Source: an uncultured Methanosarcinales archaeon
GTDB lineage: Archaea > Nanobdellota > Nanobdellia > Woesearchaeales > CAZYIM01
Direction of reading: 5' to 3'
Length of the DNA stretch: 24,056 bases
Assembly (NCBI GenBank): GCA_964647565.1
Contig: CAZYIM010000038.1
Coordinates: 1-24,056, forward strand
The translations under genes were made by a program, and so were the position numbers. Numbering within the stretch: position 1 is the first letter of the stretch; the number at the start of each line of letters is the position of its first letter. This document shows, piece by piece, positions 1 through 24,003 of the stretch. The notes under the pieces were generated by a model. That model worked only from the letters and a program-made list of their open reading frames with translations, made no database searches and was not told where the DNA came from.

Positions 1-493
1 GGGGTCCGCCACTAATATGTTTTTCCAAATACCAAGAAGAAGGTTTACTAAGCCGTCTCAAACTATATACTCCCACTGAATTCGGTTTAATCTTAGATTT
101 CAGACCTGTCAACACAGGGTTAAACCTTTCTACAAATGCACATCCAATATTCAACTTCGACTTACAAGCATGATTCTCCATACGATATGCGTCATCAAGT
201 GAACGGGTCAAAGGCTTTTCAATCAAAAAATTTTTTGTCTGGTCCTTGTATTGTAAGAACATAGAATAATGCGCTGATGTAGGGACACAAATACTGATAA
301 CATCATAATTCCTATTATTATCGTCCCACTTGAAGAATTCCATCTTTGACAATGCTGACTCTTCAGATTTACCCTCTTGCTTAATCACAGGATCAATAAC
401 ATCAATCTTTGAGACCCTGTCATCAAGTGCATACATCTCAGCATGGGTTTTACCCATCAATCCGTATCCAACCACACATACTTTCAGATTCAT
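1..493 (-). CDS. Gfo/Idh/MocA family NAD(P)-dependent oxidoreductase, truncated by the window edge (not in ORF track)
   Basis: Manual translation from ATG at 493: MNLKVCVVGYGLMGKTHA...YDVISICVPTSAH...LIEKPL...CAFVERFNP...WYLEKHISGGP. It has the Rossmann GxGxxG, EKP, ERFNP and W..SGG motifs, an upstream AGGTGA SD and no stop before base 1. Confidence 0.92.
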   Translation of the reverse strand, partial: MNLKVCVVGYGLMGKTHAEMYALDDRVSKIDVIDPVIKQEGKSEESALSKMEFFKWDDNNRNYDVISICVPTSAHYSMFLQYKDQTKNFLIEKPLTRSLDDAYRMENHACKSKLNIGCAFVERFNPVLTGLKSKIKPNSVGVYSLRRLSKPSSWYLEKHISGGP

Positions 494-539
494 TTTTTTC
501 ACCTTTGAGCATACGAAAAGGTGCCAACAACCTTGTTGC

Positions 540-1424
540 TCAGCACCTGCATAAGTGGACTTTGTCGCCTTCCTTCAAAACATGCTGCATATCCACTTTC
601 TGACCTGCATGTTTCACACTTTCTCCCCACACCTTAGCATATTTGTATCCTGAGGATATCTGCTTGGCCATATCACAGACTCTAGATTTATTCTTTTCAA
701 GTATAAAAGGTTCAGAATTTTTATCTTCCTGAGAATATACTCTGATGATACCCAGACTATTATAGAACGCATCTTTTACATCTTGAATCTCATCTGCATG
801 TACAAAAGGTATGCCTATGTCAAACAGCTCCATATCTCTGTATATTACAAAAGAAGGCAATCCCTCAACGTTCTTATCCTGATAAGAAGCAATAGGAATA
901 TTAGCATTTGTCAATTCATCCAGGACAACCTCAAGATCTTCTTCACTTCGAATCATAATGCTTGCGCTTCTAGATCTCTTGATCAGCTCATATTTCTGAC
1001 CGTTGGTTTGATAGTCACCAGAAAAAATAGGAGGCAGCTCAACCAACTGGATTGAGACATCCTGGTATTGCATCATGCCCAACTCCGGCTTGAATGTACT
1101 ATAGGGATAATCCTCAACAACTGCTTCGGCATCAGAAAACTTGTTCAACAAGGTACTCTTACCAGTGTTAGGTGTTCCAATAATCATACTGCGTAGTTTA
1201 TAGCTGGGAAACTCATAGAGGCTTTTAGAAGAAATCCTTTTGCTCGAATTTTTCTTTTTTTGCAGAGTTTCTAACATGTTACGAAATTTCTTCTTCTGAC
1301 TAGACAAGCCCGGAAATTTAGGATTTAGCAATAGCAGTTCCTGTATTATCCTTTCTTTCTCACTCTCACTAGACGTAGGATCCAGTTTCTTCAGCAGGTT
1401 CCTAAATTCAACATTATCTGTCAT
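540..1424 (-). CDS. DRG/Obg-family GTPase-like protein with C-terminal TGS domain; G3/G4 degenerate
   Basis: G1 GTPNTGKS, G2 YPYST, G3 position ELPP, and TGS-type YAKVWGESVKHAGQKVDMQHVLKEGDKV. Start moved to ATG 1424 because AGGTGA lies 5 nt upstream. Confidence 0.88.
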   Translation of the reverse strand: MTDNVEFRNLLKKLDPTSSESEKERIIQELLLLNPKFPGLSSQKKKFRNMLETLQKKKNSSKRISSKSLYEFPSYKLRSMIIGTPNTGKSTLLNKFSDAEAVVEDYPYSTFKPELGMMQYQDVSIQLVELPPIFSGDYQTNGQKYELIKRSRSASIMIRSEEDLEVVLDELTNANIPIASYQDKNVEGLPSFVIYRDMELFDIGIPFVHADEIQDVKDAFYNSLGIIRVYSQEDKNSEPFILEKNKSRVCDMAKQISSGYKYAKVWGESVKHAGQKVDMQHVLKEGDKVHLCRC

Positions 1425-1429
1425 TATTA

Positions 1430-2602
1430 TCACCTAAGATATTGTTTTTCAACTTTTAATACTGCTTCGCATATCTGATCAAGATCCTGTCTTTCCAACA
1501 CAGGATCAGTGAACAACGTCATTATCCTCTGAGTTACAGACTCAGTTATAGGACAACGAACATCTTTATTGAAGCCATTAAACACTTTAGCCTTATACAA
1601 GGGAGATGGATAACAGATGTCCATGGGCACATTCTCAGCCTGAACAGCTTTGACAAATTTGTCTCTAATATTCTCAGAACCCTTTGGTAAAAGAACAGGA
1701 TAGTTGTGAAAGACATGATCAACTCCAAAGCTAGTTTCTGGCAGCACGAGTTTTGAATGTTTAAGCATAGCTGTATAATAAGCTGCATTCTCCTTTCGCG
1801 CAGTATTAAAGCCTTCTAGTTTTGAAAATTGTCCCAGGCCAACTGCTGCCTGCATCTCAGTCATTGCATAGTTGAATCCTAACTCATCATAGATATACCA
1901 AGTATCAGGATTCTTTGGGCTACCATGTTCTCGTTTTAATCTTGCTTTATGATCCAACCAATCATGATTGGTAACAACCATACCCCCTTCACCACAGGTC
2001 ATGTTCTTGGTCTGGAAAAAGCTGAAGCATCCACAATCACCTAGGCTGCCAGCAGGTTGATCTTTATACATAGCTCCCTGAGCTTGTGCAGCGTCCTCAA
2101 TAACAAAAATACTGTAAGCATTTTTTGAAATATCATTGATATAATCCATATCTGCAACATGACCAAAGATATGGACTGGAATAACTGCTCTAGAATTTTT
2201 AGTAATTTTACTGAACAAGTCTTCAGGGGACATACAATATGTGTCAGGATCAATATCAACGAAAACAGGTTTGGCACCCTGTTGAAGCACTACTGAAGCA
2301 GTTGACACAAAAGTTAATGCAGGAACAAGTACCTCATCACCAGGACCTATGCCAAGAGCTGAGACAGCTGTATGCAAGGCAGTTGTGCCAGAGGTTGTTG
2401 CAATGCCATATTGAACTCCGCAGTTCGCTGCAAAGGTTTTTTCAAATTCAGTCACTTTTGGCCCGCCTCTAAAGACGGAAAGTCTGCCAGAATCAAGCAC
2501 TTCGAGCACTTGCTTTCTCTCCTCATATCCAATCGTGTTTTTCCACTCAAAGGATTTGTCCCTAACAGGAGTCCCTCCATCTATTGCTAGTTTATAATTC
2601 AT
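1430..2602 (-). CDS. DegT/DnrJ/EryC1/StrS PLP-dependent sugar/cyclitol aminotransferase
   Basis: LAIDGGTPVR N-terminus, TSGTTALH, EDAAQA, and SFFQTKNMTCGEGG with the catalytic Lys. GGAGG SD; ATGA overlap with the upstream gene. Confidence 0.96.
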   Translation of the reverse strand: MNYKLAIDGGTPVRDKSFEWKNTIGYEERKQVLEVLDSGRLSVFRGGPKVTEFEKTFAANCGVQYGIATTSGTTALHTAVSALGIGPGDEVLVPALTFVSTASVVLQQGAKPVFVDIDPDTYCMSPEDLFSKITKNSRAVIPVHIFGHVADMDYINDISKNAYSIFVIEDAAQAQGAMYKDQPAGSLGDCGCFSFFQTKNMTCGEGGMVVTNHDWLDHKARLKREHGSPKNPDTWYIYDELGFNYAMTEMQAAVGLGQFSKLEGFNTARKENAAYYTAMLKHSKLVLPETSFGVDHVFHNYPVLLPKGSENIRDKFVKAVQAENVPMDICYPSPLYKAKVFNGFNKDVRCPITESVTQRIMTLFTDPVLERQDLDQICEAVLKVEKQYLR

Positions 2603-3498
2603 TTTTCAAACCTCCATATACGCTCTACTGGTCGATTATTACCAATCTCCCAAGCATAATCAGACAGTCTCTGCAAATATCTTTGATCGTATTGTGTCTT
2701 GTAGATAGCTGCTAAAGACACTTTGCGATCAATAAAACCGGAGATATCTATTAACTCAGAACTCATACCTTTTGTTTTATTGTTTAGCTGTAACTCCAGT
2801 TCTTTTTCTGAGAGCTCCTTGGTATAGGGCAAATCTTCGTAGAAATCAATGTCCCATCCCGTCTCAACCAGCTTCTTACCTATGTTATAGAGCATTACAT
2901 GATCAATTTGATTGCCAATAGATACTGGAAAGAAAATTTTGTCAGAATCTAATAAGGAAAAACAATTTAAAAGAGAGTTTTCAACATCTGTAAACGCAGG
3001 ATCTTCAGAAACATCTCTCACCTCAAAAGCATTTTCATATCCTCGTTCCAAAGCCTCAGGAAATCCCAGGAATTTAAGTTCTGCATCGACCAGTTTTGCA
3101 TAGAATTCCTCTTCAAGATTATTATAGAATGTGACCTCCCCAGCAGTATTGAGTAGTCCGTTAAGCATTACACTAGTAGGACAAGAACTAAACACATTGA
3201 GAATGGAAAACTGCTGATCGGACGATAATATGTAACCGCCTAAAGATAAGGCAGCATCATCTGAATGTGCAGCAACAATCACATTTCGTTTCTTAGATCT
3301 GATCTTTCTTGGAATGTCCTCTACAATAACAGAGTCATTCAGCAGCTTTGATAGAGAAACATCCTCATTTGGCTCTTTTTGCTGACATATGGCTTGTACA
3401 GCCTCAAGGCACTCTGACTCTAACTCAAGGTTCTGTCTATATAAAAAAGTCAGCCCTGCATCATTCAATTTATAGTGTGGTAATAGTTTGTATTTCAT
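2599..3498 (-). CDS. PIG-L/LmbE family N-deacetylase with an N-terminal extension of about 70 aa
   Basis: AHSDD metal motif, LGFPEALER, QIDH (HxDH variant), FYEDLPY, YKTQ, ERIW. Confidence 0.9.
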   Translation of the reverse strand: MKYKLLPHYKLNDAGLTFLYRQNLELESECLEAVQAICQQKEPNEDVSLSKLLNDSVIVEDIPRKIRSKKRNVIVAAHSDDAALSLGGYILSSDQQFSILNVFSSCPTSVMLNGLLNTAGEVTFYNNLEEEFYAKLVDAELKFLGFPEALERGYENAFEVRDVSEDPAFTDVENSLLNCFSLLDSDKIFFPVSIGNQIDHVMLYNIGKKLVETGWDIDFYEDLPYTKELSEKELELQLNNKTKGMSSELIDISGFIDRKVSLAAIYKTQYDQRYLQRLSDYAWEIGNNRPVERIWRFEK

Positions 3499-4217
3499 TT
3501 TGCAGCCCCTACAATTATATCAATGGCAACATCCATTGCTTTTTTTTGTGTTTTTCTTGATAATTTTTTACGCTCATCAATGATAGCAAGCACAGCCGCA
3601 GCCTTATAGCCTCTTGCCTGTGCATATGCAAACGTAGCAGCACATTCCATCTCTGTGACAACTGCGCCCTGTTTTACAGCTTCCTGCATCTTCTTTTCAA
3701 GGCGTTCATGTCCAGGAAATATATCCTTATGCTCCATATATAGCAGGTCTTTAGAATGCACTGTTCCTTGGACACAAGCGTAATTTCTTGTCTTTGAAGC
3801 TTCAAAAAGCTTACAGACCATTTCAGTATCAGGTTCTGGTTTTACACCTTCAGGAAGCATGTAACTAGATAGGATCTCATCTGAAACCACCTTGTTCGGA
3901 ATAAATAAATCGCCTGCTTGCACAATAGGATACATTATACCTGACGTGCCAACCCTAATAAAACTTCTCGAACCACTCTCTGCCATCTCATGCAAACCAA
4001 TAACCCAGGAAGGCCCTCCCATGCCAAGACCTGCAAAAGAAAAATCAACATTATCCTTTGAAGCATTTCCAACTATTAATCCTCTTTTATTCGCTAAGAC
4101 TGTATAATCATCCACAAGTTCAAATACCAATTTACATCTATCAGGATCACCAAATACAATTGCATCCTTATGCAAACTTCCTCGCCTGCATCCTAAGTGA
4201 TACATTACTTCATCCAT
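3495..4217 (-). CDS. Nucleoside phosphorylase (PNP/UDP family 1, uridine phosphorylase-like)
   Basis: YHL, GDPDR, GMGGPS, IRVGTSG, EMECAA. Start moved to ATG 4217 (AGGTGG SD upstream, 8-nt overlap with the GT4 stop). Confidence 0.92.
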   Translation of the reverse strand: MDEVMYHLGCRRGSLHKDAIVFGDPDRCKLVFELVDDYTVLANKRGLIVGNASKDNVDFSFAGLGMGGPSWVIGLHEMAESGSRSFIRVGTSGIMYPIVQAGDLFIPNKVVSDEILSSYMLPEGVKPEPDTEMVCKLFEASKTRNYACVQGTVHSKDLLYMEHKDIFPGHERLEKKMQEAVKQGAVVTEMECAATFAYAQARGYKAAAVLAIIDERKKLSRKTQKKAMDVAIDIIVGAAK

Positions 4218-5334
4218 TATCAACCACCTTCTGATAATAAGCATCATGCTCTTTGATTACCTTGTCAACTCTAAAATCCTGCACAAAATCAAGAGCATTC
4301 TTAATAACTTGTTTTTTCAAAATAGAGTTCTCTTTTATCTCTGAAATAGCATGTTCTAGAGCAGAAGAATCTCCAACTTCGAACAGTAATCCTGTCTGCC
4401 TATCGTTAATCACATCTGGCAATCCAGCTACATCTGAAGCAATAACAGGAACACCTGATGCCATAGCTTCAAGATTGACATATCCAACCGCTTCATATAA
4501 TGAAGGGCAAACTAGAACATCAGCAGCCTTATAGTACAAAGGAAGTTGAGTGGGTACTACTGGATCAAATGCAAATACATTACCCCCTAATTCAACTTCA
4601 GTCGTGTCTTGTCCTGAATTTGCTCTGACAGCAGGTACATAAGAAATCCCCTGTCCTTGTTTTTTGAAGTCTCCCATGACCATTAATTGCATAGCTTTCT
4701 TTTTTGAGAGATTATTATAAGCTTCTGCAAGAACTGAAAAACCCTTCAACACAGTGGGTCTTCCAAGAAAAAAGATAGTAAAACTGTCAGGAAGACCAAG
4801 CCTCTGTCTTGCTTCTTGCGGGGAAATATCAATATTAAAATGATCAACATCCACTGGCAGTTTAAGAAGTTCGGGCTTAGCGCCAAGATCCTCTAACTCT
4901 TTCTTATGGAATTTGCTGTACACCACCAGATTCTCTATTTTAGGATAATGTTTGGATTCAAAATAAGAGAAGAATGATTGAGCTTGATGTAATTCTTTAA
5001 TTTCAGCATCATCTTGAGTGTCATTAGCAGCAATCTCAAACTCTTTTGAGAACATGCAATGTGAAGAGCAGACAGTATGACCTCCCTGCTGCTGTGCAAA
5101 GTACCCGGGCAATAAGAAATGGCTGTGCACAAGATCCAATCCATGTATTTTCTTGGAGCTAAACTTGAAATCATAATAAGTCTTCAGGAAGACAGGATCA
5201 TCATTAGGAAAAAGAACAGAGTCCTTTGCATAAGTCACGTAATGCTTATGTTCAGAATTTTTCTGAAGTAGATCAACATATGTTTCAGAGCCGCCATATT
5301 TCTTCTGCATGTACTGTATGTGTCTTATTTTCAT
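4210..5334 (-). CDS. GT4-family (GT-B) retaining glycosyltransferase
   Basis: YGGSE, VHSH, FLGRPTVLKG, ADVLVCPSLYEAVGYVNLEAMASGVPVI (EX7E), TGLLF. Confidence 0.95.
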   Translation of the reverse strand: MKIRHIQYMQKKYGGSETYVDLLQKNSEHKHYVTYAKDSVLFPNDDPVFLKTYYDFKFSSKKIHGLDLVHSHFLLPGYFAQQQGGHTVCSSHCMFSKEFEIAANDTQDDAEIKELHQAQSFFSYFESKHYPKIENLVVYSKFHKKELEDLGAKPELLKLPVDVDHFNIDISPQEARQRLGLPDSFTIFFLGRPTVLKGFSVLAEAYNNLSKKKAMQLMVMGDFKKQGQGISYVPAVRANSGQDTTEVELGGNVFAFDPVVPTQLPLYYKAADVLVCPSLYEAVGYVNLEAMASGVPVIASDVAGLPDVINDRQTGLLFEVGDSSALEHAISEIKENSILKKQVIKNALDFVQDFRVDKVIKEHDAYYQKVVDNG

Positions 5335-6347
5335 TTTTTGAACCTACTCAAGAATTTTTTTGCTTTTTGGTTGTTAAGAGACGGAACTTTAGTTATCTCA
5401 TCCAAAGATATCCAGCCATTAAGATACTGACTGATCACCTCGTAATGGTTGAAACAATCAATACATTCTTTCCAGACGCCTTTTTTTCTAAATGGAAACT
5501 CTCTTAGCTTGGATACTGAATCTTTGTATATGTTGCCAAGATTTTCATCAGGACCACAGGGGCACAATTTTATATCTCCCTCAGGGTCCACTCCTACATT
5601 GACAAGCGGCACATTACAAGCAGTTCTTCTTTGTCCAGTCTGGAGAAAAGTTACTAGCTCCTCAAGATATGCTTTTGGGGGAAGATGGTTGGCAAATCTT
5701 TTGATGTTTTCATTCATTGAGTTTCCAAATTCCTCGATTTGTTCATCAGTTGGGGATAAATCCTGGTTATCCTTACCAGGAAAAGGTCTGACCGCAAAAG
5801 GAAAAATCATGACATTACCATAATGATACTGGCTCATATACTCCAAGAAGTCAGGAAATCCTTCAATATTATGTTTGGTCAATACAGAGTTTATCTCAAC
5901 AGGCATATCAAATTTAATTGAATAATCTATGTTAGTCAGTACTTTATCTAGTAATTTTTCAGAGTAGCCTCTTGCACCATTGAGAGCAAGCGTATGACCA
6001 TCTAAAGAGTAACAAATACTAAGCCCATCATATTCAGCCAACCCAGATAATGTAGGTCCATTAAGCAGAGTACCATTGGTTATGATCTGCCAATTAGTAT
6101 TCGCAGCCAGGTTAAAAAGTTCTGGAAAACGATCATAAAGGGTGATCTCCCCGTATCCAGATATCTTGATTACGGCAGGATTAAGATGCTCCAGAGTTCT
6201 CTTTAGACCTGTATTAATTAAGATAAAATGTTCATTAAGGGAAGTTTTGTCAGCTATAATAGGTTTATCACGACAATATCCACAAGCTAGGTTGCAGTAC
6301 TCTGTGATACTATAATCCAAGATAAGAGCTTCACCTTTCTTAGGCAT
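5331..6347 (-). CDS. Radical SAM enzyme with SPASM/Twitch auxiliary-cluster domain
   Basis: ITEYCNLACGYC (CxxxCxxC), SGYGE, ITNG, SLDG, and C-terminal C..VDPEGDIKLCPC..LGNI..CIDC. Confidence 0.94.
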   Translation of the reverse strand: MPKKGEALILDYSITEYCNLACGYCRDKPIIADKTSLNEHFILINTGLKRTLEHLNPAVIKISGYGEITLYDRFPELFNLAANTNWQIITNGTLLNGPTLSGLAEYDGLSICYSLDGHTLALNGARGYSEKLLDKVLTNIDYSIKFDMPVEINSVLTKHNIEGFPDFLEYMSQYHYGNVMIFPFAVRPFPGKDNQDLSPTDEQIEEFGNSMNENIKRFANHLPPKAYLEELVTFLQTGQRRTACNVPLVNVGVDPEGDIKLCPCGPDENLGNIYKDSVSKLREFPFRKKGVWKECIDCFNHYEVISQYLNGWISLDEITKVPSLNNQKAKKFLSRFKK

Positions 6348-6352
6348 ATTGT

Positions 6353-7633
6353 TTACCTCGTCCCCACTACCTTTTCAAAAATATTGATGAACTTTTGTGC
6401 AGCGTATGTAACATCATAACGCTCAGCCCTTTGCCGAACATATTTAGATTTTTCTTCATAGAAAGGTCTATCATCAAATAAACGTTGAATTTTCTGAACC
6501 AATTCTTCATTGCTACCAAATAAAAGACCACTCTCAGCACCCATTAGTTCAGGAAAACATGCGTAATTTGGGCAAAGGGTAGGTACATAACAGGCCATAG
6601 AATCCACTACACTCATGCTCCACAACGCAGAAGGTTTCATAGGTCCTATTGACAAATATGCATCTGCCACAGTCTTATAGTAATTATCCCGTTCTATTGA
6701 GTGTTGAACCTTGACAAAAGGAAGTTCAAGTATTTTCTTCTTGTTATTATCAACAGTTGGATCAAGTGCATCTCTTTCTTTTGACCTATTGGCGGTGGGA
6801 TTTGTCACAATTATCTCAAAGTCCTGCCTCACCCCATTATAGAAATCAGTCATAGCCTTAAAGAATTCATTAGGGCCATAATGGTTGTATAACCTATGGT
6901 TGAATAAAATGCGTTTTTTACCCCCCTGCTTAGAACCATGATCTTTTAAAGAGGAATCGACTTCATTTAACGATACAGGGGGAGGTATGGCTTTGAAATC
7001 TCCAGTTGTAGATGAAATCAATTTTTGAGCATTTCCAAGCAAGAGGTCTATACCGAAATTGCTACATATTATATTATAATCACTAACATAAATAGCTTCT
7101 ATCTGACGCATGAAAATTGGCAACCCAAGTCCCTTATTATCTAAGGTGTTGTCAAACCTTAAGCTGGATGGATATCGGGTCTCTTCAAGATTCACAAGCA
7201 TGTCATAGTCCAGTCCAATTCCATTCACACTAAAATGAAAGTGAGAAGGTTCAACAGGAAGATAATGAAAGTATGAGACTATTGGAATCGTTTTTTCTGG
7301 TAATAAGGTAGCTTCAAGCGCCCTGAAGTTTGATGCCTGCTCTGACTGGTTGACATAGATCATGTCAATGTCAGCTATTATCGGTTTAATCTTTGATTCT
7401 AGCTCCTTCCAGGGAAAATTAAACCTAGCTTCAAACTTGTTATGGCCGTAGTCTAACTCAAGGTTATGTATTCGATCATCTATTTTAGGCGTACCTGGGG
7501 GTGATATATAATAAAAATTCCAATCAGGCCTCTGTTTAAGTATTTCCCCCATCAGCAACTTCTGGAACACATAGCCACTGTCAGATTCCAGGTTGCTGAG
7601 ATTACTGACATTCAGCAGGCTCAATATGTTCAT
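6353..7633 (-). CDS. Atypical GT-B glycosyltransferase, first gene of the operon
   Basis: YFHY, ILFNHR, RQDF, and WSMSVVDSMACYVPTLCPNYACFPEL (S/D variant of the EX7E region). Start moved to ATG 7633 because the TATA box lies inside the track's longer GTG-start ORF. Confidence 0.85.
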   Translation of the reverse strand: MNILSLLNVSNLSNLESDSGYVFQKLLMGEILKQRPDWNFYYISPPGTPKIDDRIHNLELDYGHNKFEARFNFPWKELESKIKPIIADIDMIYVNQSEQASNFRALEATLLPEKTIPIVSYFHYLPVEPSHFHFSVNGIGLDYDMLVNLEETRYPSSLRFDNTLDNKGLGLPIFMRQIEAIYVSDYNIICSNFGIDLLLGNAQKLISSTTGDFKAIPPPVSLNEVDSSLKDHGSKQGGKKRILFNHRLYNHYGPNEFFKAMTDFYNGVRQDFEIIVTNPTANRSKERDALDPTVDNNKKKILELPFVKVQHSIERDNYYKTVADAYLSIGPMKPSALWSMSVVDSMACYVPTLCPNYACFPELMGAESGLLFGSNEELVQKIQRLFDDRPFYEEKSKYVRQRAERYDVTYAAQKFINIFEKVVGTR

Positions 7634-7655
7634 ATCGACGAAGAATACTATTAAA

Positions 7656-7663
7656 TTTATAAA
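7656..7663 (-). promoter_or_regulatory. Archaeal TATA box for the minus-strand operon
   Basis: TTTATAAA ending 23 nt before ATG 7633, with a purine-rich BRE-like sequence upstream; the same spacing recurs at other genes. Confidence 0.7.
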
Positions 7664-7722
7664 GATTGCCTTTTTAATCACTGAAAAGTCCTAACAAATT
7701 GGTGATTTCCTCGCCTGGCAAA

Positions 7723-7758: not shown

Positions 7759-8538
7759 ATGGTGTTAGAATTAGCCATAATGAACGAAGTTATGGAGGCC
7801 CAAGCTTACAATCTAGATGGTGTTTCAGCAGAAGAAGCCCAAAGGTTTGGCCACTATCTAGCAAAGATAACTTTCACCGAAGATCCGGTTACAAAAGAGG
7901 AGGAAAGACTCTCGGAAAAGATTATGAAGCTATTGAATGAAACTCCTTCTACCAAGTTCGAATTATTAAAAGTACAAAAGGAACTCCTCGAACTTCGCAC
8001 AAAAAAGGACTATAACACCAAGCTTCATGGCATTTGGTTTGATAAGGATGATGATTTAACAAAAAAAAATCCCATGAATATCTCAATGTGGGCGGTGAGT
8101 CAAGTTGAGCATACCCCCATCAATCTTAAAACAGATTCTACTATTGGCGAAATTGTCTCTGGAAATTGGTTGTTTAAATTATATGGCAAATTTGCAAATT
8201 ATGAAGAAAAAGGGAGATCTGCAATTAGGAAGGGCAAAGGTTATCCTATTGAACGAGTCCAAATTCCTGAAAAATCAATTGAACTTGATTTAAAGATACA
8301 TAATCAATTATATCCCACACATTTCTACGTCGGAGATCTTAGTGATCAGTGTAATGAATGCTTAGTCTATGCACAGGAACAGTATGTTGATGCTCCGGGC
8401 GAATTTCACCAAATGGTTGAGCACAGGGCAGGCTTCTTTTCAATTTTGAATATCAAAAATAGGCTTTACAAAGATTGTTTAAGGGATATTGAAACCATTA
8501 AGCAAGAGATGGTCAGGTTAGAGAAACTAATCAACTAA
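7759..8538 (+). CDS. Hypothetical protein (259 aa, soluble)
   Basis: Long ORF with its own TATA box; no recognised motif. Confidence 0.8.
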   Translation: MVLELAIMNEVMEAQAYNLDGVSAEEAQRFGHYLAKITFTEDPVTKEEERLSEKIMKLLNETPSTKFELLKVQKELLELRTKKDYNTKLHGIWFDKDDDLTKKNPMNISMWAVSQVEHTPINLKTDSTIGEIVSGNWLFKLYGKFANYEEKGRSAIRKGKGYPIERVQIPEKSIELDLKIHNQLYPTHFYVGDLSDQCNECLVYAQEQYVDAPGEFHQMVEHRAGFFSILNIKNRLYKDCLRDIETIKQEMVRLEKLIN

Positions 8539-8605: not shown

Positions 8606-9124
8606 ATGTCTGATGTAGCTATCTATGTAACTCATATGGCAGAAGGTGTAACTAATATGCAGTACGACCAGGGAACCCTAAAAGAGGGCTTATCTAATGT
8701 GAAAAAACTCCTAAGAGTTGCAGCAAAGAAAAACATCCCTGTAATCTTCAATGAAATGATAGATAGTAAAGGTAAGCACTGGTCAACCAGAAGAGATATC
8801 TATCATGACATACCTGATTTGGAACCCATCATACACCAAGCTACAGAAGAAACGTTCAAGAATCAACCACTTGATCCTTGGGAACTCTTAAAAAACAAGA
8901 CCAAAACAGTGGTAGTAGTAGGTTATAACAAAACAGACTGTACTAAATGGTTGGCAAGAGCAGCAAACAAACTCGGTTATAATTTTGCAACGACAGACCA
9001 AGTTCTATTCAGCAACCAATACCATCAAAGCTTCAGGGAAAAAATGAGAGCTTTTAGATTCTACCATAAAAAAGGCAAGCTCTATAAGACTGTGGACGAC
9101 TTGATTCAAGGGGAAATAAAATAA
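8606..9124 (+). CDS. Isochorismatase/cysteine hydrolase-fold protein, divergent
   Basis: AIYVTHM, NVKKLLRVAAKKNIPVIF and TVVVVGYNKTDC..ARAANKLGY follow the family pattern. Confidence 0.65.
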   Translation: MSDVAIYVTHMAEGVTNMQYDQGTLKEGLSNVKKLLRVAAKKNIPVIFNEMIDSKGKHWSTRRDIYHDIPDLEPIIHQATEETFKNQPLDPWELLKNKTKTVVVVGYNKTDCTKWLARAANKLGYNFATTDQVLFSNQYHQSFREKMRAFRFYHKKGKLYKTVDDLIQGEIK

Positions 9125-9127
9125 AAA

Positions 9128-9907
9128 TTAACTATAAACTTTCCCTGTTAGAGCATCCACAACAACAGTCTCAAATGAACTGACATCTACCAAATGGTCC
9201 TTAACAGGACATTGAAGATGCACTAGCCAAACATCATCACATTTCTCACACGTGCTATCAAGCCCTATTGGTAGATCTGAGGGATTCTGTGTTCCTTTTA
9301 ATATCAAACTCGTAGTATCAATCATGTCCTGTTCACAGAACTCCATCCAACTGTAATACATCTGAAGGTTCTTGTCAATACCAACGCCATCTCCCTCGTC
9401 TATACCAGAATGTATGTTGTCCTTTTCTGTTATAAAAAAGTCAATGTTCTTCTTCACAGTCAAAAATGCAGTTCCTTTTTTGCAGTCAATTGTGTTCTTG
9501 GAATTTGATATCCTTGCTGAAAAAACAATGCCCTTAGCAGTATTCAAATATTTCAAATCACAACCAAACCCATCAACTATCTTGGCCCAATCTGATTTAT
9601 ACTCCTCCTCGATTTTCTGCACAGCCATCTCCCTTGTGGTGACAACCGGTTCACATTCACCACAATCCACAGGGCATTTGGAACAATCTTCAGAAGGCTG
9701 ACAAGTATTATCGCCACACGTAACAACAGCTTCTGCCTTGACATCGTCCGCATCACAGATATTATTACTGTTCTGATCAAGACAACAACTAGTGCCCATT
9801 TTCATATATGGAGGATTACAGGTAAGGTCTTCAGGATCCACACTCTTCTTGCAACCTACAACTAGAATTAACATCAATATCATAAAAACAATTATTAATT
9901 TTCTCAT
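9128..9907 (-). CDS. Secreted/lipid-anchored Cys-rich surface protein
   Basis: Signal peptide with lipobox-like LVVGC; CNPPY..CCLDQNSNNICD and CGDNTCQPSEDCSKCPVDC modules. Confidence 0.8.
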   Translation of the reverse strand: MRKLIIVFMILMLILVVGCKKSVDPEDLTCNPPYMKMGTSCCLDQNSNNICDADDVKAEAVVTCGDNTCQPSEDCSKCPVDCGECEPVVTTREMAVQKIEEEYKSDWAKIVDGFGCDLKYLNTAKGIVFSARISNSKNTIDCKKGTAFLTVKKNIDFFITEKDNIHSGIDEGDGVGIDKNLQMYYSWMEFCEQDMIDTTSLILKGTQNPSDLPIGLDSTCEKCDDVWLVHLQCPVKDHLVDVSSFETVVVDALTGKVYS

Positions 9908-10300: not shown

Positions 10301-10927
10301 TTATTTCTTCCACACCATGTGCTTTCTAAGGTAAAGATCTACCTCTCTGGTCGCACGAACATCTGCAAAAGCATCATGTGCCCCCTTTAATTCTTTATCA
10401 AACATCGCTTCATAAACAATTCCAAGTTTATATTTCTCAAGTTTAAAAGGCAGCATATCATGGGCATCTAAATATTCAACAGTCATAAGAGGGTCAATTC
10501 GCTTCCAGTAGTTGAAAAAACTTCCAAAGGAAAATTTATCATTGTTCTTATTAGGATCGTACATAAAGCTTCTTAAAAAATCCTGGTCAAACCTGATATT
10601 ATATCCACCCATCTGGAATTTGTTCTTATCTGCTTTTTTGGCATATCTATCAACAAATCTGCTAAGAAATGAGATGAGCTCTTTATGCGCCTCCTGTGGC
10701 GGCATATAATCCTTGATCACCTCAAGCTTAAGATCATTTACTTCTAATGCTTCCTCACTTATATTGTCATAGTTAAATGGCTGCATAAACCATTGTTTTT
10801 CTTCAACGACATCTCCATTAATGTCAATTATGCATGCGAGTTGCAAAATATCATTCAAATTAGGATCAGTCCCAGTGGTTTCAGTGTCGAACCAGAATAT
10901 CTTTTTATCAGTAGGTTTGCCTATCAT
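10301..10927 (-). CDS. DEDDh 3'-5' exonuclease (DnaQ-like)
   Basis: ExoI FDTETTG, ExoII YNIRFD, ExoIII HDAFAD. Confidence 0.93.
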   Translation of the reverse strand: MIGKPTDKKIFWFDTETTGTDPNLNDILQLACIIDINGDVVEEKQWFMQPFNYDNISEEALEVNDLKLEVIKDYMPPQEAHKELISFLSRFVDRYAKKADKNKFQMGGYNIRFDQDFLRSFMYDPNKNNDKFSFGSFFNYWKRIDPLMTVEYLDAHDMLPFKLEKYKLGIVYEAMFDKELKGAHDAFADVRATREVDLYLRKHMVWKK

Positions 10928-16676: not shown

Positions 16677-16756
16677 AATCTATAGAGAAGGAAATACTTT
16701 ATAAAAAACTTTCATTTTCAAAAAAACTTAAAAACACATCCCCTTTCCTCGCTTCT

Positions 16757-17950
16757 ATGATAATAGGGGTTGTAGGTAAGGCCAACGTCGGAAAAAGCAC
16801 ATTCTTCAAGGCAGCTACACTTATGGAAGTAGAGATAGCCAACTATCCCTTCGCAACAATTAAACCCAACCATGGTATAGGCTTTGTCAAGATTGACTGT
16901 GCAGATAAACATTTCAATGTTCAATGCAATCCAAGGGTTGGTTTCTGTGTAAACCATAAAAGGTTTGTACCTGTTGACATGATTGATGTCGCAGGACTTG
17001 TGCCAGGAGCTCATGAAGGTAAGGGCATGGGTCTTGAGTTCTTGAATGACCTTAACCAGGCAGATGCCTTGATTCATGTAATAGATGTTTCGGGGGGCAC
17101 CAATGAAAAAGGCGAACCCGTAGATCCAGGAAGCTATGATCCTGCTGGAGACATCAAGTTTCTAGAGATTGAACTTGACCATTGGTATTTCAACTGCCTC
17201 AAAAAGGGATGGGAAAAGTTCGCCAGACAAGTACAGCAGGAGCACAGAGATATAGAAAAAGCCCTCCATAAACAGCTCGCAGGACTAGGCGCCACAGAAG
17301 AGCTTTTAGTCCTACTTATCAAAGACTTGAATCTGAATAAAGAGAAACCTACATCATGGACAGATGCAGATCTATTAAATTTTGCTTCTGCGCTTAGAAA
17401 GAAGACCAAACCCATGATAATAGCAGCTAACAAGATAGATGTTCCTGGTGCAAGTGAGAACCTAGAAAGACTAAGAAAAGAGTTTCCAGATCATATAATT
17501 ACAGCGTGTAGTGCAGAATCTGAACTTGCATTGAAAGAGGCTGCCAAGCATAACATGATAGATTATATTCCTGGAGATGCAGACTTCAAAATTTCAGGAG
17601 ATCTCAATGACAAACAGAGGAATGCCCTTAATTTTATTAGAGATAGTGTTCTCAAGAAATTCGACACCACTGGCGTACAAGATGTTCTGAATGATGCAGT
17701 ATTCAAGCTACTCAAATACATCGCCATATTCCCTGGAGGAATCAACAAGCTTGCAGACCAACATGGTAATGTACTTCCTGACTGCTTCCTGCTTCCGGAA
17801 AAATCAACTACCCTTGATTTTGCATTCAAGATCCATACAGATCTAGGAGAAAAATTCATCAGAGCAATAGATGTAAAGAGCAAGATGACTGTTGGAAAAG
17901 ATCATCTACTTAAAAATCTGGATGTAGTTGAAATAGTTGCAGATAAATAA
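16757..17950 (+). CDS. ychF: Archaeal YchF/Obg-family translation-associated NTPase with TGS domain
   Basis: GKANVGKST, YPFATI, DVAGLVPGAH, AANKID, IHTDLG. Confidence 0.95.
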   Translation: MIIGVVGKANVGKSTFFKAATLMEVEIANYPFATIKPNHGIGFVKIDCADKHFNVQCNPRVGFCVNHKRFVPVDMIDVAGLVPGAHEGKGMGLEFLNDLNQADALIHVIDVSGGTNEKGEPVDPGSYDPAGDIKFLEIELDHWYFNCLKKGWEKFARQVQQEHRDIEKALHKQLAGLGATEELLVLLIKDLNLNKEKPTSWTDADLLNFASALRKKTKPMIIAANKIDVPGASENLERLRKEFPDHIITACSAESELALKEAAKHNMIDYIPGDADFKISGDLNDKQRNALNFIRDSVLKKFDTTGVQDVLNDAVFKLLKYIAIFPGGINKLADQHGNVLPDCFLLPEKSTTLDFAFKIHTDLGEKFIRAIDVKSKMTVGKDHLLKNLDVVEIVADK

Positions 17951-22667: not shown

Positions 22668-22670
22668 AAT

Positions 22671-22699
22671 AAAAAATTAAAAAAAAAGAAAAAAAAGGA
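22671..22699 (-). terminator. Oligo-U tract after the 22708 gene (putative terminator)
   Basis: Long T runs on the minus strand immediately after the stop codon. Confidence 0.45.
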
Positions 22700-22707
22700 G
22701 AACCTAT

Positions 22708-24003
22708 TTAGTAATAGGTCTGCTCTTCTTCGTCGTCTTCCCTATTGCCTTTAAGCTTGTTAAATCCAATTATCAAGCCAAGGATTATCAGGATAACGAC
22801 CAAGACAATCAGAGCAATCTCCAAAGCTTTCCTAAGACCTGTGCTACTACCTGCAACTGCAGATCCGCTGACAACATTTGCTGTCAATGCGACATCGGTG
22901 CTCTTGGTGTCTGATTCAACATTCACCTTGAAGACTCTCTGGCCTTCAGGAGCATCGTTGTTTGCAGTTACGTAGACATAAACAGTCTCAGTTGTTCCTG
23001 CCTTAACCATCACAAGTGAGGAAGGATCTAGCTTTGCTGTTCCCCAACTAGCAACACCTGAAACAGAGACCACATAGGTCTTTGAGTACTTTCCTGTGTT
23101 GGTAATCATTATTGGGAATACTGCTCCACTACCGCCCTTCACAACATCCTGCATACCAGGTGATGTAATGGTAGGAGTCTCTGCTTTTTCAACGTTGCAG
23201 GGATCAGGCTCTTCAAGTGGACTGCAAGTCTCACCTTCAACAACTACGATTTCCACAGTCTCTGTGGTTGATTCGTATTCGTCGAACTCGACTTCTACTT
23301 CCACTGTGTAGGTGCCTGCTTCTGCGCAGTCAGGTATCCTAATAAGAAGCTTCTCAAAAGTTTCTGACTCATCAGGGTCCAATTCATCAATATACTCTGT
23401 GTCGGTAACTCCCAACTCAGGAACTGCAATTGTAACCTTGATGTCATCAAGCTCATCGTCTCCAATGTTCTTGACCTTTACCATTGCGGTAAATGCTCTT
23501 CCAGCCATAACTTCGTTTGATGGGTTAATTGATACATCCTTAATCATGATTGCATCTTCCTCATCAACACCAATGATGTGAAGCTCATAAACGTTCTCGT
23601 ATGATGTTCCGTCTTCGTCTCCAACTGTCACTCTTAACTTTGCGTATTTCTTATCCATCTTTGTTGGAATTTGCAAGCTAAGCGTTTTATATGTTGTATC
23701 ATTCTCAGCAAGATCAAATGTTCTTGTAACATCTGAAACCATATCGCCTTCGTAGTGTGCGTATCTGTATCCAAAGATCTCTGCTCTAATCTGCACATCT
23801 TCTACATCAGCTAAAGCCTTGACTTTCATTTTCAAATCAAGTTCTTCGCCTCTCTGTACTTCGAGGTTATCTGAATGGCCTGATGCCAAACTTACTTTTT
23901 CGCCGTTAACCCTTAAAAATTCAACATTAAGGTTAACTGCGCTAACCATGCCGACCATCAATATTGTCAGCAAAAATATTAACACAACTTTTCCGATATT
24001 CAT
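22708..24003 (-). CDS. Acidic S-layer-like/CARDB Ig-domain surface protein with C-terminal TM anchor
   Basis: Signal peptide ending VSA, VKNIG and ITNTG Ig-type motifs, and a TM followed by an acidic tail EEEQTYY. Confidence 0.85.
   Translation of the reverse strand: MNIGKVVLIFLLTILMVGMVSAVNLNVEFLRVNGEKVSLASGHSDNLEVQRGEELDLKMKVKALADVEDVQIRAEIFGYRYAHYEGDMVSDVTRTFDLAENDTTYKTLSLQIPTKMDKKYAKLRVTVGDEDGTSYENVYELHIIGVDEEDAIMIKDVSINPSNEVMAGRAFTAMVKVKNIGDDELDDIKVTIAVPELGVTDTEYIDELDPDESETFEKLLIRIPDCAEAGTYTVEVEVEFDEYESTTETVEIVVVEGETCSPLEEPDPCNVEKAETPTITSPGMQDVVKGGSGAVFPIMITNTGKYSKTYVVSVSGVASWGTAKLDPSSLVMVKAGTTETVYVYVTANNDAPEGQRVFKVNVESDTKSTDVALTANVVSGSAVAGSSTGLRKALEIALIVLVVILIILGLIIGFNKLKGNREDDEEEQTYY

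Follow-up and report, generated by a model that had tools for sequence, protein, structure and literature searches.

The locus raises the question of what an archaeon from a normally gene-poor group makes with a closely packed run of sugar enzymes. The window, i.e., the whole stretch of 24,056 nucleotides analyzed here, is the entire contig C38. Families were assigned by Pfam and NCBIfam profile searches, and the operon anatomy was read from the open reading frames and their junctions. Eight co-oriented genes occupy the minus strand from position 7633 to 2, with the families and order that an earlier note had read from the letters for an operon of at least eight genes:

7656..7663, minus strand: TTTATAAA, a TATA-like box
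6353..7633, minus strand: gene 1, a divergent GT4-like GT-B glycosyltransferase (426 aa; Pfam Glycos_transf_1, E 1.1e-7)
5331..6347, minus strand: gene 2, a twitch-type radical SAM enzyme of an unnamed family (338 aa)
4210..5334, minus strand: gene 3, a GT4 retaining glycosyltransferase (374 aa; Pfam Glycos_transf_1, E 1.1e-29)
3495..4217, minus strand: gene 4, a hexameric-type nucleoside phosphorylase of the NP-I family (240 aa, counted from the ATG at 4217, in a frame open to 4247; Pfam PNP_UDP_1, E 1e-19)
2599..3498, minus strand: gene 5, a de-N-acetylase resembling PIG-L/LmbE (299 aa, of which about 70 at the N terminus form an additional region)
1430..2602, minus strand: gene 6, a DegT/DnrJ/EryC1-family PLP aminotransferase (390 aa; Pfam E 1.9e-112)
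540..1424, minus strand: gene 7, a short and divergent paralogue of the DRG/TGS GTPase type (294 aa, counted from the ATG at 1424; MMR_HSR1 and TGS domains)
2..493, minus strand: gene 8, N-terminal part of a Gfo/Idh/MocA NAD-dependent oxidoreductase (GFO_IDH_MocA, E 7.7e-13), continuing on contig C60 (L053 1-387)

The underlying minus-strand frames span 6353-7681, 5331-6347, 4210-5334, 3495-4247, 2599-3498, 1430-2602, 540-1433, and 2-502, the last being truncated by the contig end. The first is open back to a GTG at 7681, yet homologues of its protein have their start where the ATG at 7633 lies. At six junctions, the genes either overlap or are 5 nt apart, and the individual features reported beforehand were all found there: ATGA stop/start overlaps at 5331-5334, 3495-3498, and 2599-2602; an 8-nt overlap of the GT4 and phosphorylase genes, provided that the latter starts at the ATG at 4217, its orthologue at locus L024 aligning from residue 11; a 5-nt gap between the GT-B and radical SAM genes (6348-6352) and another ahead of the GTPase gene if it starts at the ATG at 1424 (1425-1429); and GGAGGT/GGTGA Shine-Dalgarno-like sites 5-13 nt ahead of the radical SAM, DegT, GTPase, and Gfo starts. 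The TTTATAAA box, counted from the sequence, lies 23 nt upstream of the ATG at 7633, in keeping with the TATA promoter proposed for the operon, and is probably the promoter of a leaderless or short-leader transcript.

The operon extends past base 1 into contig C60 via a 16-nt terminal overlap, the final 16 nt of the minus strand of the window being identical to the opening 16 nt of C60. That contig encodes the remainder of the Gfo/Idh/MocA protein, including its C-terminal domain, and the orthologue from a metagenome contig (L024) aligns across the break, C38 accounting for residues 1-162 and C60 for 159-286. Then follow genes for a SAM methyltransferase, which shares 54% identity with the methyltransferase at the end of the L024 cluster, and for a HAD phosphatase (HAD_2, E 3.8e-27); the stop of the former overlaps the start of the latter. 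The eight genes of the window are hence part of a ten-gene operon, and the genes left of base 1 are not the Wzx- or AglB-type genes that the earlier note had thought would point to a surface-glycan locus. No 19-residue hydrophobic window reaches 1.6 in any of the ten operon proteins (excluding the spurious N-terminal extension of the first frame), and none is predicted to contain a membrane span. Likewise, no flippase, polymerase, oligosaccharyltransferase, or polyprenyl-phosphate transferase was found in the Pfam-scanned flanks of the window (G000) and of L024, L014, L016, L001, L015, L041, L006, L012, and L034; the lack of such proteins noticed in the first 7.7 kb is thus borne out by both the hydrophobicity and Pfam scans. 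GT4 enzymes acting on lipid-linked glycans are likewise soluble or peripheral.

The gene combination is conserved elsewhere. We compared the window proteins by blastp with all open reading frames of 52 loci. In L024, the GT-B, radical SAM, GT4, phosphorylase, PIG-L, DegT, and Gfo genes occur in window order at 37-60% identity; next to this cluster, L024 also has a NUDIX gene and an additional PNP_UDP_1 gene. Six window genes are shared with L016 and four each with L014, L018, and L039, and the GT-B gene adjoins the radical SAM gene in ten of the 52 loci (L001, L014, L015, L016, L017, L022, L024, L039, L041, and L047). By a local HMM census, a PIG-L gene accompanies the family radical SAM gene in 29 of the 52, which fall into three architectures: an archaeal one; one of Saccharibacteria and Woesearchaeota with a glycerol-1-phosphate-dehydrogenase-like enzyme, two glycosyltransferases, and an APH kinase; and a Clostridial one with Gfo, DegT, PIG-L, a HAD::radical SAM fusion, and B12 radical SAM enzymes. 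The Clostridial version of Anaerosporobacter mobilis DSM 15930 also contains an AMP-binding enzyme, a type II dehydroquinase, a thioesterase, and a BtrH_N protein, which are typical of specialized metabolism.

Such conservation bears on whether the operon encodes one pathway at all. The GTPase and phosphorylase could be housekeeping genes caught in a generic sugar-nucleotide tailoring set: each is absent from most related clusters, and short GTPases of the DRG-like type, about 300 aa long, are frequent in the class (matches in 197 of 301 genomes). The window GTPase, with Rbg2 and Rbg1 as best PDB matches, keeps its P-loop, has ELPP at G3, and shows no NKxD motif. However, a second, separate DRG copy on contig C32 carries NKxD (IIANKADL) and EVPG, whereas the window GTPase groups with that of L039, which sits between the GT-B and radical SAM genes with overlapping ends. 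Given also the six tight junctions and the seven-gene order kept in L024, we consider a set of genes without a common pathway very improbable.

The two glycosyltransferases may act on small acceptors. A homologue search with the GT-B enzyme across 1.84 billion entries gave 239 representatives (E<=0.001), most of them aligning from query residue 17. Its AF2 model (pLDDT 92) gave as top Foldseek matches a mycobacterial methylmannose-polysaccharide mannosyltransferase (7qsg), MshA, sucrose-phosphate synthase, BshA, and PglA. Several enzymes near the predicted structure transfer sugars to small acceptors, some of them phosphorylated (MshA, sucrose-phosphate synthase, BshA, GlgM, and trehalose-6-P synthase), and the list also includes GT4 enzymes acting on glycans and lipids, among them PglA and PimA. 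For the gene 3 GT4, the best NCBIfam models were MshA (86.8 bits), corynebacterial GlgA (78.6), and BshA (76.5), all far under their cut-offs, followed at lower scores by EPS, LPS, PglH, and Agl16 models. The PIG-L match of gene 5 is weak (E 0.0033; 18.4 bits, under the 28.2-bit cut-off), but its AHSDD (AHxDD) and DH motifs line up with those of canonical PIG-L proteins (PHPDD and DH), and orthologues in L024 (34.8 bits), L006, L012, and L034 exceed the cut-off.

The radical SAM enzyme is the hallmark gene of the cluster. It falls slightly below the Pfam Radical_SAM cut-off (E 3e-6; 27.9 against 29.5 bits), carries CxxxCxxC at C18/C22/C25, and has four further cysteines (C244, C262, C295, and C298) that are conserved in all 20 of the 20 sequences compared. 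Its family is rare, unnamed, and uncharacterized: a single-sequence search returned 25 relatives and a profile search 135 at E<=1e-10 among 5.8 billion clusters. The best matches of a PDB profile search, all weak, were SkfB, anSME, MoaA, BlsE, and BtrN; a fold search returned this set again, and neither search grouped it with any single characterized enzyme. Among 120 listed family members, the same polypeptide carries a HAD domain in 13 and an APH/EcKL kinase domain in 30. Since HAD phosphatases and kinases of the APH family also take part in sugar-activation routes for surface glycans, these fusions argue for soluble intermediates but leave the solubility of the end product unaddressed.

The enzymes might instead build an envelope glycoconjugate, with an unusual (methyl)amino sugar, or glucosamine reshaped on a membrane lipid or lipid-linked glycan, ending up in the cell surface or membrane. 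Models would be hopanoid HpnI/HpnK/HpnJ or archaeal calditol synthase. According to the review PMC9092360, the BHT cyclitol ether follows from the logic of a triad of glycosyltransferase, de-N-acetylase, and radical SAM enzyme, and the radical SAM enzyme Cds acts on glycosylated GDGT lipids. The glycolipid and glycan matches of both glycosyltransferases are consistent with such a product, as are the best NCBIfam models of the DegT enzyme, PseC (270 bits, under the 423.5 cut-off) and LegC, both sub-threshold and from nonulosonic-acid routes. In L021, the family radical SAM gene lies beside a Poly_export/SLBB polysaccharide-export protein. Unlike HpnJ, however, the window enzyme lacks a B12 domain, and the HpnJ model, which matched the B12 radical SAM enzyme of L004, was absent among the 25 listed of the 36 NCBIfam models that it matched. 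No membrane protein, flippase, polymerase, oligosaccharyltransferase, or priming transferase occurs in or beside the operon here or at the nine other scanned loci, and the Clostridial relatives sit amid AMP-binding, thioesterase, and BtrH_N genes without a glycosyltransferase. The only STT3/AglB match of the genome lies on contig C16, near a DegT and a GT4 gene; an ordinary glycosylation locus therefore exists apart from the operon. A true family member was found in only two of 301 sampled genomes of the class, as would suit an accessory trait, but surface glycans have a patchy distribution too. An envelope product is possible but less likely than a soluble one.

The earlier note had also offered a glycosylated nucleoside or hypermodified nucleic acid. 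In such a pathway, the phosphorylase would supply or accept a modified sugar-1-phosphate, or the TGS-domain GTPase would guide RNA decoration. The phosphorylase retains GDPxR, RVGTSG, and EME, with an intact phosphate site, and has M and H where the structure's 'QER' stretch has Q and R, which presumably hold uracil. The GTPase paralogue is embedded in two clusters, NUDIX and PNP_UDP_1 genes adjoin that of L024, and BlsE, among the nearest radical SAM folds, belongs to the nucleoside antibiotic blasticidin S. Against this, the phosphorylase is an optional member: it occurs in two of the five compared loci sharing at least four window genes (L024 and L018), is replaced by a second SPASM radical SAM enzyme in L014 and L016, and is absent from the bacterial architectures in the HMM census. 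Its PDB matches to uridine phosphorylase and to the MTA phosphorylase of the archaeon Sulfolobus are about equally close (86 and 84.6 bits, respectively), which fits clearance of 5'-deoxyadenosine. Moreover, the GTPase is present in only two of 11 GT-B/radical SAM clusters, and the operon contains no base-modifying, RNA-binding, or DNA-binding enzyme. We regard a nucleoside or nucleic-acid product as very improbable.

We return to a pathway in the cytosol that would make an amino-sugar pseudo-oligosaccharide or an aminocyclitol glycoside, a reading that we give about an even chance. Of the products proposed earlier, the soluble amino-sugar pseudo-oligosaccharide is the best supported, the support being for chemistry on soluble, phosphorylated intermediates; we infer the solubility of the end product, as we do all substrates and the order of steps, and the product could be handed on to a lipid or glycan. 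The MshA/BshA-like GT4 would attach GlcNAc or a similar sugar to a small, probably phosphorylated acceptor, and the PIG-L enzyme would take off the N-acetyl group. The twitch radical SAM enzyme may then act on the freed amino sugar or the acceptor, by oxidation as in BtrN/anSME or by carbon-skeleton rearrangement as proposed for PtmC, HpnJ, and Cds. A keto group from the Gfo/Idh/MocA dehydrogenase would be converted to an amine by the DegT aminotransferase and methylated by the methyltransferase, the divergent GT-B would add a second sugar, and the HAD phosphatase would remove the phosphate handle. The nucleoside phosphorylase would be an optional helper, perhaps clearing 5'-deoxyadenosine from the radical SAM reaction, and the scheme includes no step for the DRG/TGS paralogue.

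The operon would work like aminoglycoside or pactamycin-type pathways, yet it is a member of none. According to PMC9092360, PtmC, HpnJ, and Cds are proposed to reshape a sugar into a cyclopentitol after its attachment by a glycosyltransferase, and PMC13402214 describes the pactamycin cluster with ptmJ (glycosyltransferase), ptmA/B/G/N (sugar-modifying), and ptmC. The likeness to the butirosin set BtrR/BtrN/BtrM/BtrD holds for logic but not for membership: the operon has no sugar-phosphate cyclase, and the BtrN match is restricted to the N-terminal core (28.6 bits). The best PDB match of the DegT enzyme is 7b0d (250 bits), deposited as 'glutamine--scyllo-inositol transaminase', followed by perosamine synthases and, behind these, BtrR-type 2-DOI aminotransferases (190 bits). 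Nor was an inositol-1-phosphate synthase found in the 86.9% complete host genome; a cyclitol core is without a visible source.

The host is a Woesearchaeota-like archaeon, its nearest named GlyRS relatives being Woesearchaeota/Nanoarchaeota, as expected of the DPANN member suspected earlier. The accompanying picture of a lineage with minimal biosynthetic capacity does not fit its 2.68-Mb genome, compared with 0.3-2.1 Mb for genomes of the class. The genome that carries this ten-gene operon of soluble sugar enzymes is unusually large for an archaeal group that is normally poor in genes, and the operon's product is most likely an amino-sugar compound that nobody has yet observed.

Eight open reading frames occupy the minus strand of the window from base 7681 to base 2, and encode in order a GT-B glycosyltransferase, a radical SAM enzyme, a GT4 glycosyltransferase, a nucleoside phosphorylase, a PIG-L deacetylase, a DegT aminotransferase, a DRG/TGS GTPase, and a Gfo/Idh/MocA dehydrogenase. 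Homologues begin at residue 17 of the first protein, so we place its start at the ATG at 7633. The junctions and the promoter-like box that an earlier note had described from the sequence alone were confirmed in the sequence read-out, and SD-like sites (GGAGGT or GGTGA) precede four of the starts. The features concerned are as follows.

7663–7656, minus strand: TATA-like box and probable promoter, TTTATAAA, 23 nt 5' of the first ATG
7633, minus strand: ATG of the first gene
6348–6352, minus strand: gap of 5 nt
5331–5334, minus strand: ATGA overlap
4217, minus strand: ATG of the phosphorylase gene, with which its 8-nt overlap with the GT4 gene holds
3495–3498, minus strand: ATGA overlap
2599–2602, minus strand: ATGA overlap
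1425–1429, minus strand: gap of 5 nt
540–1424, minus strand: DRG/TGS GTPase gene

A box-to-ATG spacing of 23 nt is typical of archaeal leaderless or short-leader promoters, and from the position of the box the transcript is probably of this kind. All families named in the earlier note were supported by Pfam and NCBIfam searches, with PIG-L alone sub-threshold in the window protein (Pfam E 0.0033). The PIG-L assignment is secured by orthologues above the cut-off and by aligned AHxDD/DH motifs: AHSDD and IDH of the window protein correspond in the alignment to PHPDD and QDH/IDH in members that reach the Pfam threshold. We take the AHPDD-type motif and the downstream HxDH-type histidine of PIG-L/LmbE proteins to serve zinc binding and catalysis.

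The estimate of at least eight genes stood for the window and was extended to ten, because the operon continues on a second contig of the same assembly, C60, with a methyltransferase and a HAD_2 phosphatase. The final 16 bases of the window minus strand recur as the first 16 of C60, and the Gfo/Idh/MocA orthologue from L024, a related locus, aligns with the window by residues 1–162 and with C60 by residues 159–286. After the Gfo part, C60 carries the gene for a class-I SAM methyltransferase, which shares 54% identity with the one closing the L024 cluster, and then the HAD_2 gene, whose start overlaps the methyltransferase stop; a spacer of 390 nt and unrelated genes follow. The far end of the operon, where the earlier note would have looked for Wzx/AglB-type surface-glycan machinery, thus holds tailoring enzymes and no such genes. 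Logan contigs of four runs, compared with window positions 1–2500, are short pieces at depth 2–4.5; they leave bases 1–252 uncovered and hence neither confirm nor contradict the join. The window sequence occurs in at least eight of the DNA runs listed, from two marine/seawater studies, and in no RNA run among those listed. The G+C content of the cluster (0.38–0.40) is no different from that of the rest of the genome.

Two genes beyond the promoter, a divergent gene (7759–8538) and an isochorismatase-like gene (8606–9124), were considered as operon members and rejected, as blastp found no counterpart of them beside any related cluster. Other features of the surroundings are listed here.

9128–9907, minus strand: Cys-rich protein of 259 aa, no Pfam match
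10301–10927, minus strand: RNase_T-type exonuclease gene, a few kb from the GT-B/radical SAM pair
16718–17077, minus strand: ORF of 119 aa, no Pfam match, overlapping the start of the next feature
16757–17950, plus strand: YchF/YGR210-like GTPase gene
20301–24003, minus strand: two large proteins (788 and 431 aa) with CARDB, NPCBM_assoc, and FixG_C-type Ig-like domains
about 1710–1960 of C60, minus strand: small Cys-rich protein, no Pfam match, in the spacer 3' of the HAD gene

Both Cys-rich proteins have lipoprotein-like signal peptides, and they lie on either side of the operon. The two Ig-like-domain proteins are probably surface proteins, and the 119-aa ORF is probably not a gene. An RNase_T-type exonuclease gene likewise lies near the pair in a Hodarchaeota MAG (L001, 11767–12318, minus strand), possibly by coincidence.

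The host is a DPANN-type archaeon, apparently with an exceptionally large genome. In the window, the glycyl-tRNA synthetase (499 aa) is 59–67% identical to proteins named Candidatus Woesearchaeota or Nanoarchaeota archaeon, and the genes for this protein and for the RFC-like protein each occur once in the assembly. The assembly, in which the window makes up the whole of contig C38, comprises 2.68 Mb in 86 contigs (86.9% complete, 1.85% contamination), whereas the sampled genomes of the class span 0.3–2.1 Mb (n = 300). The DPANN assignment of the earlier note is thus in line with these relatives, but the minimal biosynthetic capacity that it assumed fits a genome of this size less well. Either the genome is Woesearchaeota-like and very large, or the bin contains extra DNA that went undetected. 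By tblastn, the SPASM radical SAM protein of L014, another related locus, matched many separate places on three of its other contigs: at least ten on C12 (2–57 kb), at least eight within about 21 kb on C13 (41–62 kb), and nine on C17 (7–55 kb). Arrays of this kind stand out in a DPANN-type genome and could belong to clusters for peptide modification or other functions.

The gene combination is conserved elsewhere. A profile-guided scan around members of the radical SAM family yielded 52 loci, 13 from species-representative genomes and 39 from metagenomes, whose ORFs were compared with the window proteins by blastp; PIG-L was counted with HMMs built from these sequences. The GT-B gene lies directly upstream of the radical SAM gene in 10 of the 52 loci. 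L024 retains GT-B, radical SAM, GT4, phosphorylase, PIG-L, DegT, and Gfo in the window order (37–60% identity), with two methyltransferase and two HAD genes in the vicinity; six window genes are kept in L016 and four each in L014, L018, and L039. A second SPASM radical SAM gene fills the phosphorylase slot in L014 and L016. The family is accompanied by a PIG-L ORF in 29 loci. The remaining 23 include many short contigs, but L025, L045, and L048 are long and still lack PIG-L.

Three main architectures were distinguished. The first is the archaeal arrangement of the window and L024. The second, in Saccharibacteria and Woesearchaeota MAGs, combines a glycerol-1-phosphate-dehydrogenase-like enzyme, GT4, PIG-L, GT-B, radical SAM, GT4, an APH kinase, and often HAD. 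Its Fe-ADH_2 proteins score as glycerol-1-phosphate dehydrogenase (125–165 bits), that of L034 also matching aroB at 29 bits. We do not claim orthology between the window GT-B and the GT-B that precedes the radical SAM gene in these clusters, since their likeness by hhalign (probability 93% and 37%) is generic and C-terminal only. The third, in Clostridia, comprises Gfo, DegT, PIG-L, a HAD::radical-SAM fusion, and B12 radical SAMs. Its carriers include the cultured Anaerosporobacter mobilis DSM 15930, whose cluster adds an AMP-binding enzyme, a type II dehydroquinase, a thioesterase, and a BtrH_N protein. A fourth architecture was seen in the Hodarchaeota locus (L001, 3787–5393) and a metagenome contig (L041, 2861–4395), where a P-loop kinase (AAA_17) and a prenyltransferase alpha-alpha-toroid protein, rather than GT4 and PIG-L, follow the GT-B/radical SAM pair; a terpenoid link is possible. 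In L025 (3268–14198), a distant family member occurs with DegT, a Dph2-like diphthamide-synthesis protein, a methyltransferase::radical-SAM/SPASM fusion, a SLOG (LOG-like) protein, and a FemAB-like acetyltransferase, a mix suggestive of nucleotide- or aminoacyl-linked chemistry. True family members were found in two of the 301 sampled genomes of the host class, namely this assembly and G020 (a distant version), and transposase genes flank L024 and L014. The cluster has the marks of an accessory trait, patchy in distribution and transferable.

The radical SAM protein (338 aa) represents a rare family: a single-sequence search of 5.8 billion clusters retrieved 25 relatives, and a profile search (E ≤ 1e-10) retrieved 135. 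Its CxxxCxxC motif and four further cysteines, spaced C-x17-C-x32-C-x2-C, are invariant in 20 of 20 diverse members, a pattern that fits one fully ligated auxiliary cluster in a twitch-type arrangement. Among the 120 of 135 members listed, HAD fusions occur in 13 and APH/EcKL kinase fusions in 30, and no protein is named after Streptomyces. Profile and fold searches place the protein among SkfB, anSME, BlsE, MoaA, viperin, BtrN, and DesII with no clear nearest relative, its model (pLDDT 88.6) recovering the general SPASM/twitch set at TM 0.5–0.65. The profile of the window protein matched BtrN at 28.6 bits, over the N-terminal core only (query positions 10–108), and BtrN was not among the chains listed in the fold search. 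Complex prediction for GT-B and the radical SAM protein scored 0.01 against a mark of 0.32 and is uninformative either way. Cluster, PDB, and literature searches found no name, paper, or solved structure for the family or cluster; literature searches likewise found no work on radical SAM, PIG-L, glycosyltransferase, and aminotransferase together in archaea, nor a reported aminoglycoside biosynthetic gene cluster for DPANN. The link to a de-N-acetylase and the frequent phosphatase and kinase domains point to an unrecognised radical reaction on amino sugars.

GT-B is itself rare (239 representatives among 1.84 billion), and its model (pLDDT 92) folds as a GT4-type retaining transferase. The top Foldseek match is a mycobacterial methylmannose-polysaccharide mannosyltransferase (7qsg), followed by MshA, sucrose-phosphate synthase, and BshA and then by PglA, GlgM, and trehalose-6-P synthase, a list that mixes small-acceptor enzymes with glycan or lipid enzymes. 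PDB sequence searches with GT-B and the PIG-L protein returned nothing useful. The best NCBIfam matches of GT4 include MshA and BshA, all far below equivalog cut-offs, and the best model for the PIG-L protein of L004, a further related locus, is BshB1. For DegT, the nearest PDB entry is deposited as a glutamine--scyllo-inositol transaminase, ahead of perosamine synthases and BtrR-type enzymes (190 bits), with WbpE (187–190 bits) and NtdA (157 bits) also matched; PseC and LegC are its best NCBIfam models, at sub-threshold scores. For the full-length Gfo orthologue, inositol 2-dehydrogenase and archaeal UDP-GlcNAc 3-dehydrogenase are equal best models; both score about 90 bits, far short of their cut-offs, so this match does not tell a cyclitol from a nucleotide-sugar substrate.

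The family logic of the operon is that of aminoglycoside/aminocyclitol pathways. Butirosin biosynthesis uses an aminotransferase (BtrS/R), the twitch radical SAM dehydrogenase BtrN, the GT4 enzyme BtrM, and the PIG-L enzyme BtrD; all four families are found together in the window, including the marker combination of a GT4/PIG-L pair with a DegT aminotransferase. The Cys pattern of the window radical SAM protein resembles the single fully ligated auxiliary cluster of BtrN, although the protein is longer than the BtrN chains in the PDB (about 270 aa). GT-B, Gfo, methyltransferase, HAD, phosphorylase, and DRG proteins have no Btr counterpart in this order, and none of the ten operon proteins matches a 2-deoxy-scyllo-inosose synthase/sugar-phosphate cyclase, DHQ_synthase, or Fe-ADH. 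Mycothiol and bacillithiol pathways share the trio of GT4 (MshA/BshA), PIG-L (MshB/BshB), and phosphatase (MshA2) acting on a small soluble acceptor, and MshA and BshA are also among the best fold matches of GT-B. In contrast, the operon has no cysteine ligase (MshC/BshC), and radical SAM, DegT, Gfo, and methyltransferase play no part in those pathways. The dehydrogenase, aminotransferase, and methyltransferase in a row at the operon end recall, at family level only, WbpB/WbpE, NtdC/NtdA, and GenD2-GenS2-GenN, and an NtdB-like HAD phosphatase is present there too. In gentamicin biosynthesis, GenD2 (Gfo/Idh/MocA), GenS2 (DegT), and GenN (N-methyltransferase) act on an already attached sugar.

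The set matches the pactamycin branch equally well, where a GlcNAc-type sugar is attached, de-N-acetylated, and oxidised and transaminated before its proposed reshaping by a radical SAM enzyme. PtmG, PtmN, and PtmA are presumably the deacetylase, oxidoreductase, and aminotransferase of that route, which also has methyltransferases. The pactamycin cluster contains the glycosyltransferase PtmJ, sugar-modifying enzymes, and the radical SAM enzyme PtmC (PMC13402214), and PtmC is proposed to turn the attached amino sugar into a cyclopentitol, with HpnJ (of the hopanoid set HpnI/HpnK/HpnJ) and the calditol synthase Cds proposed to act similarly on lipids (PMC9092360). The likeness is one of family logic, PtmC and Cds being compared by description only. 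The window operon lacks PKS and ACP genes. In the Clostridial relatives, the set is joined by an AMP-binding enzyme, B12 radical SAMs, and a dehydroquinase, a composition close to that of the pactamycin cluster. The window radical SAM protein has no B12 domain, unlike HpnJ-type enzymes; the HpnJ model (TIGR03471) matches the B12 radical SAM of L004 and is not among the 25 listed of the 36 NCBIfam models matched by the window protein.

Four observations favour a single cytosolic pathway that works on small, partly phosphorylated sugar intermediates: the genes are tightly coupled, the set is conserved, the radical SAM family carries phosphatase and kinase fusions, and ten independent neighbourhoods contain no membrane or export component. 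None of the ten operon proteins has a membrane span, and no AglB, flippase, or polyprenyl-phosphate priming transferase was found in the window, C60, or the scanned flanks of nine related loci; the only STT3/AglB match of the genome lies on another contig (C16), near another DegT and GT4. We give about even odds to the favoured reading, in which the product is a soluble amino-sugar pseudo-oligosaccharide or aminocyclitol glycoside. Counting against it, the operon has no cyclase, and inositol-1-phosphate synthase (PF01658) was not found in the genome (86.9% complete). The latter result also lowers an inositol-based (mycothiol-like or streptamine-like) product. These points keep some weight on a less probable alternative, in which the operon would build an envelope glycoconjugate: GT4 enzymes of lipid-linked glycans are soluble too, HAD phosphatases and APH-type kinases also serve sugar-activation routes for surface glycans, and at one exceptional locus (L021) the radical SAM gene adjoins a Poly_export polysaccharide-export gene.

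The phosphorylase keeps its phosphate-site motifs and is equally near archaeal MTA phosphorylase and uridine phosphorylase, scoring 112 against TIGR01718 (cut-off 280). It lacks the Gln/Arg uracil pair of the uridine phosphorylase subfamily, reading M and H where the aligned enzyme has the Q and R of "QER", residues that presumably hold uracil. Since the gene is optional in this cluster type, the enzyme may simply clear 5'-deoxyadenosine. The GTPase is a short DRG/TGS protein that departs from the full motif set of DRG proteins (Rbg1/Rbg2: G1, DxxG, NKxD, TGS). The P-loop (G1) and TGS are present, but G3 reads ELPP instead of DxxG, no NKxD motif (G4) was seen, and the alignment lacks the middle part that lies between the G domain and TGS in Rbg structures. 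Short DRG-like proteins matched in 197 of 301 genomes of the class, and most of those sampled carry one of roughly 300 aa in which E-[IV]-P-[AP] replaces DxxG. The window copy groups with a cluster-embedded copy in L039 (1360–2244; 35% identity), which lies between GT-B and radical SAM genes; both have in addition lost NKxD and share a distinct N-terminus, and a second DRG copy of the host assembly, on C32, has the motif. The suggestion that the operon makes a glycosylated nucleoside or modifies nucleic acid rests on two optional genes, and we regard it as very improbable. A ribosome-directed, aminoglycoside- or pactamycin-like amino-sugar antibiotic is a long shot, in which the new twitch radical SAM family would be horizontally shared with CPR and gut Clostridia and the degenerate DRG/TGS paralogue would protect its own cell by binding ribosomes.

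Clusters for amino-sugar tailoring that include a twitch radical SAM enzyme are a known kind of system; new here are the hallmark enzyme, its fusions, its spread over DPANN, CPR, and Clostridia, and the embedded DRG paralogue. Because A. mobilis DSM 15930 is a cultured strain, bench tests of the family need no DPANN culture. Were the antibiotic reading true, it would provide the first archaeal aminoglycoside-type chemistry and the first DRG-derived immunity protein. DPANN archaea and CPR bacteria are regarded as metabolically stripped-down symbionts; a conserved, horizontally shared amino-sugar operon would give them specialised chemistry, possibly directed at hosts or competitors.
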